From: a virus
Lineage: Duplodnaviria; Heunggongvirae; Uroviricota; Caudoviricetes
DNA: 42,130 nucleotides
Strand: one strand, 5' to 3'
IMG/VR virus record: IMGVR_UViG_2917398303_000001
Each line of letters begins with the position of its first letter. Position 1 is the stretch's first letter. This document shows positions 1-16,708 of the stretch, piece after piece. The position numbers were made by a program, and so were the translations under genes. Under the pieces are notes generated by a model. It was given only the letters and a program-made list of their open reading frames with translations, was not told where the DNA came from and ran no database searches.

Positions 1-1254
1 ATGCTGGAACAAATGGGCATTGCCGCGAAGCAAGCCTCGTATAAATTAGCGCAACTCTCCAGCCGCGAAAAAAATCGCGTGCTGGAAAAAATCGCCGATG
101 AACTGGAAGCACAAAGCGAAATCATCCTCAACGCTAACGCCCAGGATGTTGCTGACGCGCGTGCTAATGGCCTCAGCGAAGCGATGCTTGACCGTCTGGC
201 ACTGACGCCCGCACGGCTGAAAGGCATTGCCGATGATGTGCGCCAGGTGTGTAACCTCGCCGATCCGGTGGGGCAGGTAGTCGATGGCGGCGTGCTGGAC
301 AGCGGCTTGCGTCTGGAGCGTCGTCGCGTGCCGCTGGGGGTGATTGGCGTGATTTATGAAGCGCGCCCGAACGTGACGGTCGATGTTGCTTCGCTATGCC
401 TGAAAACGGGTAACGCGGTGATCCTGCGTGGCGGCAAAGAAACCTGTCGCACTAACGCTGCAACGGTGGCGGTGATTCAGGACGCCCTGAAATCCTGCGG
501 TTTACCGGCAGGAGCAGTACAGGCAATTGATAATCCTGACCGCGCGTTGGTCAGTGAAATGCTGCGTATGGATAAATACATCGACATGCTGATCCCGCGC
601 GGCGGCGCTGGTCTGCATAAGCTATGCCGCGAACAGTCGACAATCCCGGTGATCACAGGCGGTATAGGCGTATGCCATATTTACGTTGATGAAAGTACAG
701 AGATCGCTGAAGCATTGAAAGTGATCGTCAACGCGAAAACTCAGCGTCCGAGCACGTGTAATACGGTAGAAACGTTGCTGGTGAATAAAAACATCGCTGA
801 TAGCTTCCTGCCCGCATTAAGCAAACAAATGGCGGAAAGCAGCGTGACATTACACGCAGATGCTGCCGCACTGGCGCAGTTGCAGGCTGGACCCGCGAAG
901 GTGGTGGCTGTTAAAGCCGAAGAGTATGACGATGAATTTCTGTCATTAGATTTGAACGTCAAAATCGTCAGCGATCTTGACGATGCCATCGCCCATATTC
1001 GTGAACACGGCACACAACACTCCGATGCGATCCTGACCCGCGATATGCGCAACGCCCAGCGTTTTGTTAACGAAGTGGATTCCTCCGCTGTTTACGTTAA
1101 CGCCTCTACGCGTTTTACCGACGGCGGCCAGTTTGGACTGGGTGCAGAAGTGGCGGTAAGCACACAAAAACTCCACGCGCGTGGCCCAATGGGGCTGGAA
1201 GCACTGACCACTTACAAGTGGATCGGCATTGGTGATTACACCATTCGTGCGTAA
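1..1254 (+). CDS. proA: gamma-glutamyl phosphate reductase (proline biosynthesis)
   Basis: Full 417-aa ORF from ATG at 1; translation recognised as ProA (aldehyde dehydrogenase fold). Host gene flanking the prophage. Confidence 0.93.
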
Positions 1255-1368
1255 ATAAAAACGGGTGATGCAAAAGTAGCCATTTGATTCACAAGGCCAT
1301 TGACGCATCGCCCGGTTAGTTTTAACCTTGTCCACCGTGATTCACGTTCGTGAACATGTCCTTTCAGG

Positions 1369-1444
1369 GCCGATATAGCTCAGTTGGTAGAGCAGCGCAT
1401 TCGTAATGCGAAGGTCGTAGGTTCGACTCCTATTATCGGCACCA
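1369..1444 (+). tRNA. thrW: tRNA-Thr (anticodon CGU), prophage integration target
   Basis: 76-nt sequence GCCGATATAGCTCAGTTGG...GGTTCGACTCCTATTATCGGCACCA with D-loop, anticodon loop containing CGT, T-loop GGTTCGA and 3' CCA; integrase gene starts 15 nt downstream. Confidence 0.9.
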
Positions 1445-1458
1445 TTTAAATCAATAAG

Positions 1459-2622
1459 TTACACATCATTAGTACCTTCCTTATTTTTTGACTGGGACAA
1501 ATTTGGGACCGATGGGTTCAGAATCGAGTCTATTTGCCGTGCGTGTTCGGTAAGGTGATTAGGCGCGAGGTGAGCATATCGACGAACCATTTCGATAGAC
1601 TCCCAGCCACCCATTTCCTGTAACACTGACAACGGGACTCCGGCTTGAACCAGCCAACTTGCCCAGGTGTGTCTCAAGTCGTGAAATCTGAAATCATCAA
1701 TACCAGCTCGTCTCAGCGCCGCTTTCCAGGCTGTGTTTGCGTCATACCGCATCTTCCTTACTGTTGGCGCTTTCGTTCCGTCTGGTTTGGTACAGCTTTC
1801 CTTATACACAAATACCCAACGGTGATGATTCCCTATTTGTTTTTTCAATACGCGACATGCAGTATCATTCAGCGCAACGCCAATTGCGCGGTTTGATTTA
1901 CTCTCTTCCGGGTTTATCCATGCCACCCGGCGCTGCATGTCTATTTGTTGCCATTCAAGGTTGATGATGTTCGAGCGTCTTAAACCTGTTGCCAGTGCAA
2001 ATTCAACAACAGACTTTAATGGCTCCGGACATTCATCAATCAGCCTTTGTGCTTCATGAGGCTCCAGCCAGCGGATCCGTTTATTCTTTGGTTGAGGCAC
2101 TTTAATAATTGGTGCCTTATCCAGCATTTTCCATTCACGCTCTGCGGCTCTTAGCAGGGCCTTTATAAATGAAAGATGCGTTGCCTTCGTTGCAACGGAC
2201 GCTGGTTTTGGCGTGTATTCTGGAACAGGTTTCCCTTTTTTTCTGCATGCTTCTGCCCTGAGTTTCCAGTTTTCCTCATGACGCCGGTTCGTCATTTTCT
2301 GAATTGCTGAATAAATTTTTGATTCAGTAATGTCTCTTAGTTGCATCCCTGCGAAATGTTGAAGCCAGAATCCGATCCGGCTTTTGTCATCGTCCAGTGA
2401 TTTTTTATGTGCTTTCTCTTCAAGCCACCTGACACACGCTTCCTCGAACGTCATATCAGGTATTTCACCAAGTTTGCTGACCCGCCATGCTTCAGCCTTT
2501 AGCTTGTCATGGAGCTCTGTTGCCTGCCTTTTGTCCTTTGTTCCAAGAGACTGTTTAAATCTTTTACCGTTCGGCAATGTGAAACTGGCGTACCATATTT
2601 CACTTCTGCGGAAGAGTGACAT
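1459..2622 (-). CDS. int: tyrosine-type phage integrase (P4-like family)
   Basis: 387-aa ORF next to the tRNA; C-terminal catalytic motifs ([15 protein letters not shown] ... VRRYAHL) typical of tyrosine recombinases; RBS AGAGGA upstream of the ATG. Confidence 0.9.
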
Positions 2623-2849
2623 TTTCTTTCCTCTGTTATGCCATCACCCGCGCTCACCTTGATAGTATGCAGCGGAGACTGAAGCGCCGCAATGCAGGCT
2701 TGTCGCGTTGTGAGGTAAGGAGATTTTGGTTTAGTGGGGTCTTTGCGTGTTGCCTGTAGGCGGCCTGTTCGTATCCAGTTGGTAGCGGTAGGTCTGGATA
2801 TCTTGAGAAACTGACAGGCCTCATCGAGTGTGAGACTGTATGATTCCAT
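2499..2849 (-). CDS. xis: excisionase-like DNA-binding protein (AlpA/Xis family)
   Basis: ORF upstream of int; ATG at 2849 preceded by AGAGGT RBS; N-terminus [31 protein letters not shown] has a helix-turn-helix typical of AlpA-type excisionases. The 3' end overlaps the int start by 124 nt, so the true C-terminus is uncertain. Confidence 0.5.
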
Positions 2850-3099
2850 GGTTACCTCTGCTTTTTGAACGCATGTCACGTAACTTCTTAATGTGTTCTG
2901 CCGTTTCGATCTCTTCTGCTATCCGATCTGCATCAGCTTTATTCACAGGTTCAAAGTCATGATTAAAGCGGAACATGCTGGCGATACATGTTCTGCCTTT
3001 TCGGATGTAGTGAACTTTGTTGTGAGTGGAACGCAGGATTTTGCAGGGAGTGCCGTGGTGGTCGACGTACCAGGTGTTAGGGTAAATCACTCTGAACAT
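2821..3099 (-). CDS. hypothetical early protein (92 aa)
   Basis: ATG-initiated ORF in the compact minus-strand early operon with short overlaps to its neighbours; no recognisable domain. Confidence 0.4.
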   Translation of the reverse strand: MFRVIYPNTWYVDHHGTPCKILRSTHNKVHYIRKGRTCIASMFRFNHDFEPVNKADADRIAEEIETAEHIKKLRDMRSKSRGNHGIIQSHTR

Positions 3100-6494: not shown

Positions 6495-6569
6495 GGCTGA
6501 ACTCCTGAAAATGGCTGTGAAAATATCGCCCGCGAAATGCCAGGCTGATTAGGAAAACAGGAAAGGGGA

Positions 6570-6860
6570 TTAGTGATTCAGGCCGTTACCGCGTCCGTCG
6601 AGAAAAACTTCCACGAGCAAATCACGGGTATAAGTGCGCTCGATGCCGCGATGCAGATAAAGCCGTCCGCGTAAATTAGCTGAGGCAGTCCAGGTACCAT
6701 CTTTGTGTTTGACCAGCATTCCTGGCATGACCGCACCGCGATTAACGGTCTGCGTTCCGTAATGTTGATGAACCATAAAAACTCCTGCCCGTAAGCTGGG
6801 CTGCTGAACATATAGAGACTTCTGCGCGTATTCAGGCGGTGGATGGCCGCCGGTTGTCAT
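6570..6860 (-). CDS. hypothetical early-left protein (96 aa)
   Basis: ATG-initiated ORF with RBS, first gene downstream of the putative leftward early control region; occupies the kil/cIII position of lambda but has no recognisable similarity. Confidence 0.45.
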
Positions 6861-7221
6861 AACTAAGCCGCCTCGTTGAAGCGACTGAGGTATGAAGTGT
6901 TGAGTTGAGTTGATTTCAGCTGGTCACACCGACGTTCACGCGTCCGCTTCACCCCTCGCACTCCCCGGAGCCTGCTGAAATTCAAGCTGCGGATCTAAGC
7001 GGTCATCGCAACGGTGAATCAGGTGGTTGCCGTATCGTTGTGTTGTTGCGATATGGTGATAATAGCTATTGCTATTGGTGATATCAATACTTATTGCTAT
7101 TGGTTGATGTGTTTTGATATTAAATGTTTGATAGCAAAAAGAATTAATTTTGTGACTTGCATTGCACAGCAATAACTGAAGCGAGGTTGTGGTGTTTTTT
7201 AGGACGATATGCGTGATGAGG
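6861..7221. promoter_or_regulatory. noncoding early-left control region with repeated TATTGCTATTGG motifs (candidate OL/pL)
   Basis: About 360 bp with no plausible ORF; direct repeats ATTGCTATTGG at about 7066 and 7093, with related TTGCTATTG motifs recurring in the cI-cro intergenic region. Confidence 0.35.
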
Positions 7222-7256
7222 GGAGGCAAAAGAAAACCCGGCACGGAGGCCGGGTT
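7222..7256 (-). terminator. intrinsic terminator closing the cI-proximal module
   Basis: 8-bp stem AACCCGGC / GCCGGGTT (7235-7242 and 7249-7256) with a 6-nt loop, followed on the minus strand by UUUCUUUUG; stem starts at the stop codon of the 7255..7638 gene. Confidence 0.65.
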
Positions 7257-7638
7257 AACTTTTATCTTTTCTACTGGCAGCAGGGAATAATCCCCTGATA
7301 ACACCAAGAAAAGCAGCGAATACATTAAGAGTAACAGCTGTTGTTACAGCCAAAACTACCTTATCGGAAAAAACCTTTATCCCAATGATAGAAAACCAGC
7401 CTTGAAAGAAAAGAAACAAAGCCCATCCGTAAAGTGATTTTTTTACGACACGGTACGCTTTTTCCGCCAATATCTCACGAAGTTGCCTGTTTGACTTGGC
7501 GTCTGCCGCTTTTTGAGCATTGAGGTCGTCACCTCTGGATATTCTTTCTGTAATTGGCGGCTCATCTTCGGCACTTGATACTGTCGATGAGCCTACATTT
7601 GTGCCACTGGGTATAGATATGCTATCAAACGACTTCAT
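7255..7638 (-). CDS. small membrane protein, candidate toxin/effector (PanT-like)
   Basis: 127-aa ORF whose ATG overlaps the stop of the upstream gene (TAATG); hydrophilic N-terminal 70 aa, then two predicted TM helices (LYGWALFLFFQGWFSIIGIKVF; VVLAVTTAVTLNVFAAFLGVIRGLF); AT-rich codon usage. Confidence 0.5.
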   Translation of the reverse strand: MKSFDSISIPSGTNVGSSTVSSAEDEPPITERISRGDDLNAQKAADAKSNRQLREILAEKAYRVVKKSLYGWALFLFFQGWFSIIGIKVFSDKVVLAVTTAVTLNVFAAFLGVIRGLFPAASRKDKS

Positions 7639-8108
7639 TAGTGAATATGCTTCGCCATATCCTCATGAGAAATGGGGCCACCATCTGCACTTCCCTTGCT
7701 CCATGCTGTACCAGGCGCATGTGTTAAGTTAGACAGTTCGGTACCTGAAAATTTCCCATATACTTCGATGATTTTATTGATAAGAGCTTGAGCTTCTTGA
7801 TCATCTTTTTGAATTGTAGGGGTGATTCTTTTTAATTCGCCATCACACTCTAAGATGACGCTAATCTTTTCAGTGATTTCGTTTGCTCCATACTTCTTCA
7901 ACATATGATAAAGCGGTGGAATAACAGGCCCGAATTTCCATCTGGCGAAAAGATCATCAAAAAGCGGTGTGTTGTCGCGTAACTTTAAATGCCATGATTG
8001 AGTATAAAAAAGAAGCTTCTGGAGCTTCATTGGAGTCAGATTCTTTAACTTACCCTTTAAAGCCTTTTCAATGAAGGCATTAGCAACCGCTGCAGCTGAG
8101 TAAGCCAT
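7638..8108 (-). CDS. Panacea-domain (DUF4065) protein, candidate antitoxin (PanA/SocA-like)
   Basis: 156-aa ORF with strong RBS AAGGAGGG; N-terminal region AAAVANAFIEKA...LKNLTPMKLQKLLFYTQSWHLKL...GPVIPPLY matches the conserved core of DUF4065/Panacea proteins as I recall it. Confidence 0.55.
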   Translation of the reverse strand: MAYSAAAVANAFIEKALKGKLKNLTPMKLQKLLFYTQSWHLKLRDNTPLFDDLFARWKFGPVIPPLYHMLKKYGANEITEKISVILECDGELKRITPTIQKDDQEAQALINKIIEVYGKFSGTELSNLTHAPGTAWSKGSADGGPISHEDMAKHIH

Positions 8109-8397
8109 GTTATGCCCTCCTTAACTGTATAAATAACCAGTTGTATAATGCTTGCATTTTACCTGAAAGGTAACTGTTAGTACATATTAATAACTTTATG
8201 TACATCCGTCACTTACAAAACGATAGGATTTATTGCTGTTTATCCTTATTAGGTAGCATATTATTCTGGTAAGGGGTGCTGGAAAGTTGTTTACTATATA
8301 TAGTGGTAGGGTGGCATAATTCAATACAACATAAAGTGTCATGGCGAGAGCTCTGGCTATCGCCATCATTAATATTGTCTATTATGTAGACATGGGA

Positions 8398-9090
8398 TTA
8401 ACCATGTTTCCTATACGTCTGCGGCATGCTCCCAATAACCTTACCGAAGATGAATACCCGGTTCATCTCGTCTTTCTCGATCGGGTCCCACGGTGAGTAG
8501 CTTTTGTTATCAGAGATGACCAGTAGCTTATCCTTCATCATTTGCAGGCGCTTTACATGGGCTGTGTCGTCATACAGAAACGCATAGATACCATCACCGT
8601 CGAAAGATTTAACCGTGATATCAACGAACAGCAGATCACCTGGTTCGATAGTTCCTGACATGCTGTCACCACGCACGTTAATGATGCGGATATTTTCCGC
8701 CTTCCTGCCATCGAACATGTGACGAGCATCGTCAAACGAGTACTCAACCGAGCGTAGGACTTCTACAAACTCACGGTTGATGACACCCGGCCCGGCACTG
8801 ACTTCTATATCAAGAACGTCAATCTTGAAGTATTTGGAATGGTTGACAGCAGGCTTCCCTGATTGTTGACCGTCATTTCTCATCGGGCCTATGCCTGATG
8901 AGAGCCACTCTGTTCGAACACCCAATGCATTAGCTATTTCAACAATTTTTGTTGAGCCGCGCGCGTTGCCGCTTGTCAGTCTCCAGATTGTGGGTTGAGC
9001 TACGCCAGACGCCTTTGCAAGAGCGCCTTGAGACATTCCAGATTGTTCCATCGCTAGGTTTAAGCGATCAGCAAGAGTTTCTTTTTTCAT
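8398..9090 (-). CDS. cI: CI-like prophage repressor (HTH plus S24 LexA-like peptidase domain)
   Basis: 231 aa from ATG at 9090 (the track ORF begins at an upstream TTG); N-terminal HTH (MSQGALAKASGVAQPTIWRL) and C-terminal S24 autopeptidase motifs (NVRGDSMSGTIEPGDLLFVD ... HVKRL); divergently oriented to cro. Confidence 0.85.
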   Translation of the reverse strand: MKKETLADRLNLAMEQSGMSQGALAKASGVAQPTIWRLTSGNARGSTKIVEIANALGVRTEWLSSGIGPMRNDGQQSGKPAVNHSKYFKIDVLDIEVSAGPGVINREFVEVLRSVEYSFDDARHMFDGRKAENIRIINVRGDSMSGTIEPGDLLFVDITVKSFDGDGIYAFLYDDTAHVKRLQMMKDKLLVISDNKSYSPWDPIEKDEMNRVFIFGKVIGSMPQTYRKHG

Positions 9091-9197
9091 AAGTTTTAAT
9101 TTATACGCTTGCGTATTGATGGTCAAAACACGTTTTGCTATTGCTTGGATTAATACGCATTGCTATTATCCATTCATTGCAATACCAATAGGAATTG
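9091..9197. promoter_or_regulatory. cI-cro intergenic operator/promoter region (OR-like)
   Basis: Divergent-gene spacer containing the perfect palindrome ATACGC-TT-GCGTAT (9103-9116), a related half-site AATACGCATTGC, and TTGCTATTG motifs. Confidence 0.6.
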
Positions 9198-16058: not shown

Positions 16059-16292
16059 TTTAAATGGGGAGGTGGCTGGATGTCTAAAATAAACATTGCT
16101 TCCAAGTGTACAACTATGCGTTAATGGCTGCGTCGGTTTGAAGAACAGACGATATACGAAGTAGTTTACTAAAGCAGTTCTCATTTCAGGTGTTATTCAC
16201 TTATTCCTTCTTTGAGTCTCTCCAATTAAGTACGAAGTCGTTTCTGTTATACAAATCATTTATGCCGAAAGGCTCAAGTTAAGGAATGTAGA

Positions 16293-16508
16293 ATGTCAAA
16301 TAAAATGACTGGTTTAGTAAAATGGTTTAACGCTGATAAAGGTTTTGGCTTTATTTCTCCTGTTGATGGTAGTAAAGATGTGTTTGTGCATTTTTCTGCA
16401 ATTCAGAATGATAATTATCGAACCTTATTTGAAGGCCAAAAGGTTACCTTCTCTGTAGAGAGTGGTGCTAAAGGTCCTGCAGCAGCAAATGTCATTATTA
16501 CTGATTAA
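16293..16508 (+). CDS. CspA-family cold-shock protein
   Basis: 71-aa ORF with RNP motifs ([12 protein letters not shown]; VFVHFSAI); about 230-nt upstream leader, as is usual for csp genes. Confidence 0.9.
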
Positions 16509-16708
16509 AATTCATAGCTTGTCTGTATACGATAACGAAGAAGGCTGATGCCTGAGTAGAGATGCAGATAGAGTTGTGGGTATTGAATCCCATTTTGTGG
16601 TGAAGTGCAGGTTTGCTGCATGAATAGTTTTACAGTAGAAGCTAACTGCTGGCATAGCAATACAAAGTGCGTAAGTGGGTAACTACCACAAAAAGCACCA
16701 CAATCTCA

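Follow-up and report, generated by a model that had tools for sequence, protein, structure and literature searches.

What occupies, in a lambdoid prophage, the place where lambda keeps rexAB, and what might it be doing there? The question is raised by positions 7222-8397 of a 42,130-nt stretch of viral DNA (Caudoviricetes; IMG/VR record IMGVR_UViG_2917398303_000001; ‘the window’ below means this whole stretch, and all coordinates are its own), which is a lambdoid prophage integrated at tRNA-Thr and adjoining proBA. Between the repressor gene cI and a strong terminator are two open reading frames (ORFs), both on the minus strand, one of 156 aa (7638..8108) and one of 127 aa (7255..7638), which share a single base in the TAATG at 7640-7636. 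The answer offered here is that they are probably a type II toxin-antitoxin (TA) cassette of the PanAT family, antitoxin gene panA followed by panT for a T3-class membrane toxin, in the variable slot between cI and oL/pL. The family is already described, experimentally grounded and annotated, and the pair is a member of it rather than a system of a new kind.

The two genes and their family

Is the upstream gene what it looks like? An earlier note on this DNA, made from the letters alone, had taken panA (7638..8108, minus strand) for a Panacea (DUF4065) gene and coupled it to a membrane protein with two C-terminal transmembrane (TM) helices behind a soluble N-terminal half. The 156-aa product, a stand-alone Panacea-domain antitoxin by family, matches Pfam PF13274 (SocA_Panacea) at E=7.3e-21 (75.6 bits, the cut-off being 25.7) over profile positions 1-112 of 113. 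It is identical to WP_135490831.1 of Escherichia sp. E4694, and PGAP already labels the gene as that of a Panacea domain-containing protein. Its AlphaFold2 model (pLDDT 96.4) is a single compact alpha/beta domain with no helix-turn-helix (HTH). Compared by Foldseek with the PDB the model returned nothing below E=0.1, and with BFVD only unnamed viral proteins; solved structures gave no sequence match to PanA or PanT. A Shine-Dalgarno sequence, AAGGAGGG, can be read at 8115..8122 on the minus strand, and nearly every one of the 36 loci in which panA was matched has a GGAGG-type site just 5' of where the panA start aligns.

The downstream gene, panT (7255..7638, minus strand), is predicted to encode a small membrane toxin of the T3 family; its 127-aa product falls in phrog_33656 (4.9e-42), and Pfam, NCBIfam and PADLOC gave no family match. 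It is hydrophobic from approximately residue 71 to 119 (means of 1.6-2.1 in a 19-residue Kyte-Doolittle window), and AlphaFold2 models residues 1-28 as disordered, followed by a helix at 37-85, a loop and a helix at 92-117. An acidic N-terminus precedes a basic amphipathic helix that continues into TM1, and the short loop KVFSDK leads to TM2 (92-117); the positive charges at both ends of the protein suggest that its N- and C-termini are both cytoplasmic. In homologue alignments the invariant core consists of the second TM helix, TLNVFAAFLGVIRGLFP, plus an R-LR...KAY helix. The homologues form 65 clusters when collected by a word-seeded search and number 317 at E<=1e-3 in a profile search of 1.84 billion representatives; tblastn of a plasmid collection with the toxin found no match. 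The earlier note had named, as computational grounds for giving up its proposal, a missing Panacea match and a lack of membrane segments; the match is present, membrane segments are predicted, and hydropathy and the AlphaFold2 hairpin agree on the topology it had drawn.

Its reading of the pair as toxin and antitoxin has also stood up, PanAT being a family whose T3 toxin cluster has been validated as PanA-neutralised. Among the nine PanAT pairs validated by Kurata et al. 2022 (PMC8832971) is one from E. coli STEC O31, whose PanT (cluster T3) depolarises the membrane, permeabilises cells to SYTOX and is neutralised by its PanA; the authors liken the effect of this toxin to that of HokB. Dataset S1 of the same study lists as T3 the pairs of Phaseolibacter flectens, Tatumella morbirosei and T. 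saanichensis with spacings of -4, +8 and +15, and these are the very spacings measured at three loci of window-toxin homologues (L018, L016 and L019; the strains are P. flectens ATCC 12775, T. morbirosei LMG 23360 and T. saanichensis NML 06-3099). The Dataset also lists pairs of Pseudomonas orientalis and P. lactis as T3, and both species are among the loci retrieved. Because its homologue loci are listed as T3 pairs, the window gene is, by sequence comparison, a T3 PanT, a placement that runs via these other listed members and not via direct alignment with WP_000019185.1.

That last protein is the toxin of the STEC O31 pair (WP_000287252.1 / WP_000019185.1), the closest published comparison: it too is from Escherichia and has a stand-alone Panacea antitoxin upstream of a small toxin, which has a charged N-terminal region and C-terminal TM segments and, by cross-reference, belongs to the same cluster. 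It differs in that its genes are 22 nt apart, where those of the window overlap by 1 nt, that it is flagged NotPhage, and that no regulation was described. The Bartonella apis/choladocola pair (T12, the D11 of NetFlax; PMC8832971, PMC10440598) likewise has a depolarising toxin with an unstructured N-terminus, a short helix and TM segments. Mutagenesis of that toxin places its PanA contact in the N-terminal region and the pre-TM helix (PMC10440598), and binding of the toxin N-terminal part by the Panacea domain is adopted here, by analogy, as a model for how PanA and PanT of the window may meet. The T12 toxins are, however, a separate cluster only possibly homologous to T3, and as far as reported they are not repressor-linked. 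A third relative, SocAB of Caulobacter (type VI TA), shares the Panacea domain through SocA, but SocB is a DnaN-binding toxin and not a membrane protein, and SocA serves ClpXP as an adaptor, while other PanAs depend on neither ClpXP nor Lon. We rejected a SocAB system or a SocA-like protease-adaptor mechanism for the window: PanA scores 92.9 bits with the NCBIfam SocA equivalog NF047745, below its cut-off of 190 bits, its partner is a membrane protein, and in the published PanAT work neutralisation is direct, with no need for ClpXP or Lon.

Might there be no TA pair at all, the membrane protein being non-toxic in its native host and PanA its partner in some other role? Several predicted PanT candidates were indeed non-toxic in E. 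coli (Kurata 2022 SI Table S1), yet an E. coli member of the same toxin cluster is toxic and neutralised, and the two genes overlap, are strictly paired and are both under purifying selection; we think it very improbable that this is the explanation. As for the pairing, panA directly precedes a co-oriented toxin gene in 24/24 GTDB species genomes, in 53/53 IMG/VR contigs and in every E. coli variant, with a gap that ranges from -4 to +32 nt across loci. As for the selection, pN is 0.16-0.39 and pS 0.73-0.89 in comparisons of panA and panT with four diverged relatives, and since pN is far below a saturated pS, both are real genes.

A cassette in the slot between cI and pL

The repressor gene upstream (8398..9090, minus strand) is of cI type, with an HTH and an S24 self-cleaving peptidase (Pfam HTH_3 1.5e-06, Peptidase_S24 1.5e-18; phrog_4 1.3e-69); its mechanical ORF reaches a TTG at 9126, and the PGAP homologue in L001, a near-identical prophage, is of 230 aa. 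An oR-like operator region (9119..9195), between cI and cro, contains ATTGCTATTGGT / ACCAATAGGAAT motifs and a 49-nt repeat with 73% identity to 7053-7101, and repeats in common with it are found in the oL operators and pL-like promoter (7053..7104, minus strand; TTGATA 7087-7082, TATTAT 7064-7059; 10/12 in the scan). As in lambda, the ATTGCTATTGGT operator motifs and the 49-nt repeat flank panA-panT, and because the operator repeats at 7053-7104 and 9119-9195 bracket the pair, the module is between oL and oR, inside the immunity region. It fills the lambda rexAB slot, from cI to oL/pL.

How much of this slot is foreign? Two sister prophages of the same backbone but with other cargo (L037 and L038), one of them with an identical cI protein, provide the measure. 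Backbone homology with them breaks at 7255/7256 and at 8396-8399, and because it stops at those points the exchanged unit is 7257-8397 on the minus strand, a swapped-in cargo cassette made up of a spacer with a putative promoter, panA and panT, whose edges coincide with the cI stop codon and the backbone terminator. By megablast the flanks are present in 2043 of 5426 complete E. coli genomes, and the full segment in 11 only. GC content is 41% for the module, 35% for the spacer and 51.5% for the window, and together with the homology breaks this fits what the earlier note had said of AT-rich, acquired cargo; its overlapping ORFs are exact, and its AT-rich spacer measures 289 bp (8109..8397, minus strand). 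The approximately 130 nt of the spacer nearest panA are conserved with panAT modules at other genomic sites (L009 aligns to window 7282-8237 and L014 to 8156-8243). The cargo of L037 (L037:1664-2605) is a 313-aa protein that matches the PADLOC candidate PDC-S42 (3.2e-86) and NCBIfam LAPAL_fam, and that of L038 (L038:1732-2451) an 87-aa protein plus a 147-aa coiled-coil protein with no function assigned. The interval between cI and N is a published mosaic hotspot, home of rexAB and bstA (PMC8585504), and the present locus is a clean case of cassette exchange within this cI-to-pL hotspot of lambdoid prophages: identical backbones bear PanAT, a PADLOC candidate defence gene, or small genes of unknown function.

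The terminator that ends the pair (7225..7256, minus strand) is the tIMM equivalent, the intrinsic terminator of the immunity operon, with its stem at 7235-7256 followed by a U-tract. The earlier note was right that it is strong (dG -20.8 kcal/mol; z = -4.5 against shuffles), though not in counting it with the module: it is inside the segment common to L037 and L038, and on these alignments it is to be counted with the prophage backbone, the 289-bp spacer with the cassette. Between cI and panA no terminator was found, the palindrome at 8341-8360 having no U-tract.

Does residence in this slot make panAT another rexAB? The earlier note had compared the locus with the cI-rexA-rexB architecture of lambda, and the slot and the pairing of a cytosolic with a membrane protein hold, but neither homology nor control logic does. 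Both modules are downstream of cI, inside the immunity region, with a terminator before oL/pL, and both combine a cytosolic partner with a membrane effector acting, in RexAB and prospectively here, by loss of membrane potential. There is no sequence homology between them (a Pfam scan at E<=1 gave Panacea alone for panA and no family for panT), and RexA activates RexB whereas PanA neutralises its toxin. RexB is also a larger, polytopic membrane protein, where PanT has a hairpin of two TM helices, and we know of no LexA box at rexAB. BstA of the Salmonella prophage BTP1 (PMC8585504) is likewise accessory cargo directly downstream of a repressor gene, with a terminator of its own, in a slot that is a defence hotspot; it is unrelated in sequence and mechanism, being a single large DNA-associated protein with the self-immunity DNA element aba.

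It may nonetheless be asked whether panAT works as a Rex-like exclusion system, constitutive in the lysogen, in which transcription from pRM with cI would provide both proteins, PanA would sense an infecting phage and free the membrane effector, and the LexA box described below would be irrelevant or non-functional. The slot is that of rexAB and bstA, nothing terminates transcription between cI and panA, a sister prophage holds a PADLOC candidate defence gene in the same place, and Ernits 2023 propose Panacea as a sensor. With no homology to RexA or RexB and no match to a defence model, and with more to be said on both sides once regulation and distribution have been considered, we take this for a minority possibility.

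A LexA box upstream of panA

The earlier note had suggested that the spacer could carry its own promoter, and a putative one is there; what it missed is the predicted LexA (SOS) box, AACTGTATAAATAACCAGTT, at 8123..8142. The box has the form CTG-N10-CAG (consensus TACTGTATATATATACAGTA), is identical at 18/20 positions to the K-12 dinI box, and at 23.9 bits is the top site of the 42-kb window, where shuffled sequence gives 0.19 sites at >=14 bits. That score came from a first position-specific scoring matrix of LexA boxes, six of which (those of dinI, recA, lexA x2, sulA and umuD) were located as expected in MG1655; a matrix made from those six verified K-12 boxes only gives AACTGTATAAATAACCAGTT 20.3 bits, with the next-best site in the window at 10.8. 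It is 14 nt upstream of the panA ATG, abuts the Shine-Dalgarno sequence, and would span about +8 to +27 of a transcript predicted to start near 8149; on its side away from panA is a promoter-like block that is conserved.

The promoter-like block, a putative sigma-70 promoter of panA (8156..8184, minus strand), has TGTACT (8184-8179) as its -35 and TAAAAT (8161-8156) as its -10, with a 17-nt spacer, and matches the consensus at 8/12 positions; the automatic scan did not list it. Its position is conserved in the window, L003, L011 and L014, and it aligns with TTGACT...CATAGT in L018 and with TATAAT in L017 and L036.

Is the box an accident of one prophage? Of 19 non-redundant lineages, 9 have a box scoring >=15 bits no more than 300 nt upstream of panA (composition-preserving shuffles give a mean of 0.017), and in two further lineages LexA boxes precede a dinI gene whose immediate downstream neighbour is panA; among the IMG/VR viral contigs 41 of 53 have one. 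The genera with a box are Escherichia, Serratia, Pantoea, Erwinia, Dryocola, Phaseolibacter, Pseudomonas and Stutzerimonas. Because of the box at 8123-8142, SOS-inducible expression rather than simple co-expression with cI would be implied. The words LexA and SOS are absent from the Panacea papers PMC8832971 and PMC10440598, and no other report was found; the box is apparently an unreported feature of the cassette and is what the present analysis adds. For the reading of panAT as a Rex-like system driven from pRM it is awkward, as the cassette's own 289 bp of upstream DNA, with its top-scoring box and conservation across genera, are hard to explain if only pRM matters.

The same observations invite another reading, that panAT is an SOS-induced dormancy or addiction module, a protein-antitoxin analogue of TisB or DinQ that would serve damage-induced depolarisation, tolerance, or the killing of cells from which the prophage has been lost. 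TisB/IstR-1 and DinQ/AgrB of E. coli are small depolarising inner-membrane toxins with LexA-repressed promoters; they are of type I, their antitoxins being RNAs and their toxins peptides of <30 aa, where the window has a protein antitoxin and a toxin of 127 aa. The recurrence of LexA boxes upstream of panA, the linkage to dinI and umuD-like SOS genes, and the fact that the validated toxin relative depolarises the membrane and is likened to HokB speak for it. Set against this, the sampled family is found in the 53 IMG/VR viral loci, in Stx2a-converting phage records, and in annotated prophages or an integrative conjugative element (ICE), it occupies known slots for defence cargo, and addiction is of little use to an integrated prophage. 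We put it, too, at perhaps one chance in a few.

Some further features of the region bear mention in their own right. An inverted repeat, GTTACC-N5-GGTAAA, is conserved at 8174-8158, between the putative -35 and -10; the same repeat is found in the E. coli dinI-linked modules and in Dryocola, with an analogue, ATACCA-N3-TGGTAT, in Serratia, and PanA itself is without a DNA-binding domain. On the plus strand a promoter-like TTAACT-17-TATAAT (10/12; 8121-8149) overlaps the LexA box, facing antisense towards the cI 3' end. It may be a LexA-controlled promoter antisense to cI; other panAT loci do not conserve its -10, and it may instead be a by-product of the AT-rich palindrome. In L015 and L020 a second strong LexA box (23.7-24.7 bits) is found at about -340 from panA.

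Where else the module is found

Were panAT a fixture of the immunity region one would expect to meet it there only. It is indeed met downstream of repressors elsewhere. Window-type panAT follows cI in at least two immunity specificities, since L002, otherwise so similar, diverges from window position 8954 on. In Stx2a-converting phages of O103, O111 and O145 the order in the same slot is cI, a methylase, a restriction enzyme, panA and panT; two Tatumella species have panAT straight after an S24+HTH repressor, with no LexA box; in Dryocola and Erwinia it comes after the repressor and one or two small genes; and IMG/VR holds further repressor-linked cases (L049, L052, L054 and L063). But other prophages have dinI-panA-panT at their tail-fibre or attachment end, a Serratia prophage has panAT after the Q antiterminator, in Pantoea it is next to a divergent umuD-like gene, and one location is an ICE. 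From these varied locations it follows that the module is a self-contained mobile unit that has landed at several sites, the rexAB slot among them.

This distribution cuts both ways for Rex-like exclusion. In Tatumella and in the Stx2a phages the module is part of the cI operon without a LexA box, and in the latter a restriction-modification system is its neighbour, just as one would wish; the copies outside cI operons, beside dinI, after Q and on ICEs, are no part of what it would lead one to expect.

The Serratia locus after Q also speaks for yet another reading, that panAT is a lytic-cycle helper whose SOS-induced PanT would block superinfection or tune the timing of lysis, with PanA as timer or self-immunity as pRM shuts off. 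The site directly after Q is one for late or lysis cargo, a LexA-controlled promoter would fire exactly at cI cleavage, and in size and topology the hairpin protein resembles a holin. A holin identity was considered for PanT and rejected, there being no similarity to a Pfam holin family; a lysis region is already present in the window, downstream of Q, and on ICEs and beside umuDC-like genes, where the module also occurs, there is no lytic cycle. Such a role seems rather improbable.

Several of the loci have points of interest beyond the module. L002 (NZ_CP172337.1), 44.8 kb and circular, was deposited as plasmid pCE-O153H30-A and corresponds in essence to the present lambdoid phage, whose panAT cassette it carries at 99.3% identity; it also encodes Avs2, and may be an excised, circular form of the phage or an assembly artefact. 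L008:5977-10242 (E. coli O103:H2 12009) has an Eco57I-like methylase and a BsuBI/PstI-like restriction enzyme, and no LexA box, as have 23 records of Stx2-converting phages. In many prophages of the Pseudomonas fluorescens group (L023-L031, L033, L065-L091) a divergent S24+HTH repressor gene is separated from panA-panT by an intergenic region of ~200 nt that contains the LexA box. At L020:3098-4782 a divergent umuD-like S24 gene is followed by a 420-aa ORF, and panAT appears to be beside an SOS mutagenesis operon. In the ICE of E. coli RM11911 (L012:2156-2929) panA is annotated at 257 aa with an N-terminal extension of 97 aa; no toxin ORF was detected downstream of it, and the L010 module may be present here in a decayed or rearranged form.

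How the pair might work

Returning to the TA cassette that we favour, its toxin and neutralisation steps can be drawn from family membership and published relatives. PanT would enter the inner membrane by its C-terminal helical hairpin, leaving both termini inside, and by analogy with the T3 member of E. coli STEC O31 would dissipate the membrane potential and permeabilise the membrane. PanA, soluble and single-domained, would neutralise it by direct binding, as other PanAs do, most likely at the cytoplasmic N-terminal region and the amphipathic helix before TM1, if T12/D11 is a guide. The 1-nt overlap would couple translation of the two genes, keeping PanA and PanT in step.

Transcription, for which we lean on the DNA itself and on comparative conservation, would have two inputs. 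One is read-through from pRM, to be expected because there is no terminator between cI and panA; the other would be the cassette's own promoter, repressed by LexA. Expression of panAT would rise on RecA* cleavage of LexA, at the moment when cI is also cleaved and pRM collapses. What would be gained? The likeliest role may be that of an abortive switch, triggered by damage or infection, which halts the cell by depolarisation and could exclude competing phages or impose an SOS-linked growth arrest. The case for phage exclusion is one from position and analogy. The slot and the neighbouring cargo favour exclusion or abortive infection; a damage-coupled function is what the SOS wiring and the linkage with dinI and umuD point to, and the two are compatible.

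Several observations weigh against this picture and should be seen together. The T3 placement reaches the validated toxin indirectly, through other listed T3 members. The -35 of the predicted promoter is weak, at 3/6. About 40% of lineages are without a LexA box, and those are often the ones directly in a cI operon; SOS control would appear to be common in the family but not universal. In Pseudomonas, where panA and an S24 repressor gene diverge, the box between them may instead belong to the repressor gene. As to defence, PADLOC matched no model (the best, PDC-M19A, was non-significant at E=0.048), and a published E. coli pangenome defence screen has no mention of Panacea.

Other features of the immunity region

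The prophage's integration site is marked by the tRNA at 1369-1441. The earlier note had remarked that no N antiterminator sits where lambda has one, and this is so: no N-like ORF was found between the pL-like promoter (7087->7059) and a Kil/FtsZ-inhibitor-like gene (6570-6776, with a possible start at 6860), nor does the PGAP annotation of the near-identical prophages L001 and L002 include an N gene. Between promoter and Kil-like gene is a leader of ~275 nt without an ORF (window 6780-7050). Rfam, searched at the gathering threshold over the whole window and at E<=1 over 6500-8450, gave nothing relevant there and no put- or nut-like family. Elsewhere in the prophage, downstream of the Q-like antiterminator gene, is a cspA thermoregulator RNA (RF01766, 155.9 bits; 16132-16524).

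Perspective

A broader proposal is that T3-type PanAT is a prophage-borne branch of the SOS regulon, in which LexA cleavage is the physiological cue, long looked for, that arms a Panacea system. On present sequence comparisons we offer this tentatively, as somewhat doubtful and yet worth having in view. If true, then in the cI slot a LexA-repressed promoter takes over just as pRM collapses, and either the supply of PanA is maintained, with the induced prophage avoiding a self-inflicted abort, or a depolarising effector shuts out competitors. It would be a Rex-like membrane switch tied to RecA*, and not to lysogenic transcription alone. The 2023 NetFlax paper states that the cues of PanAT have yet to be identified. 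Conserved across genera, the LexA box provides a concrete and cheap hypothesis for one trigger, DNA damage or RecA activation, and links the PanAT family to the classic SOS membrane toxins.

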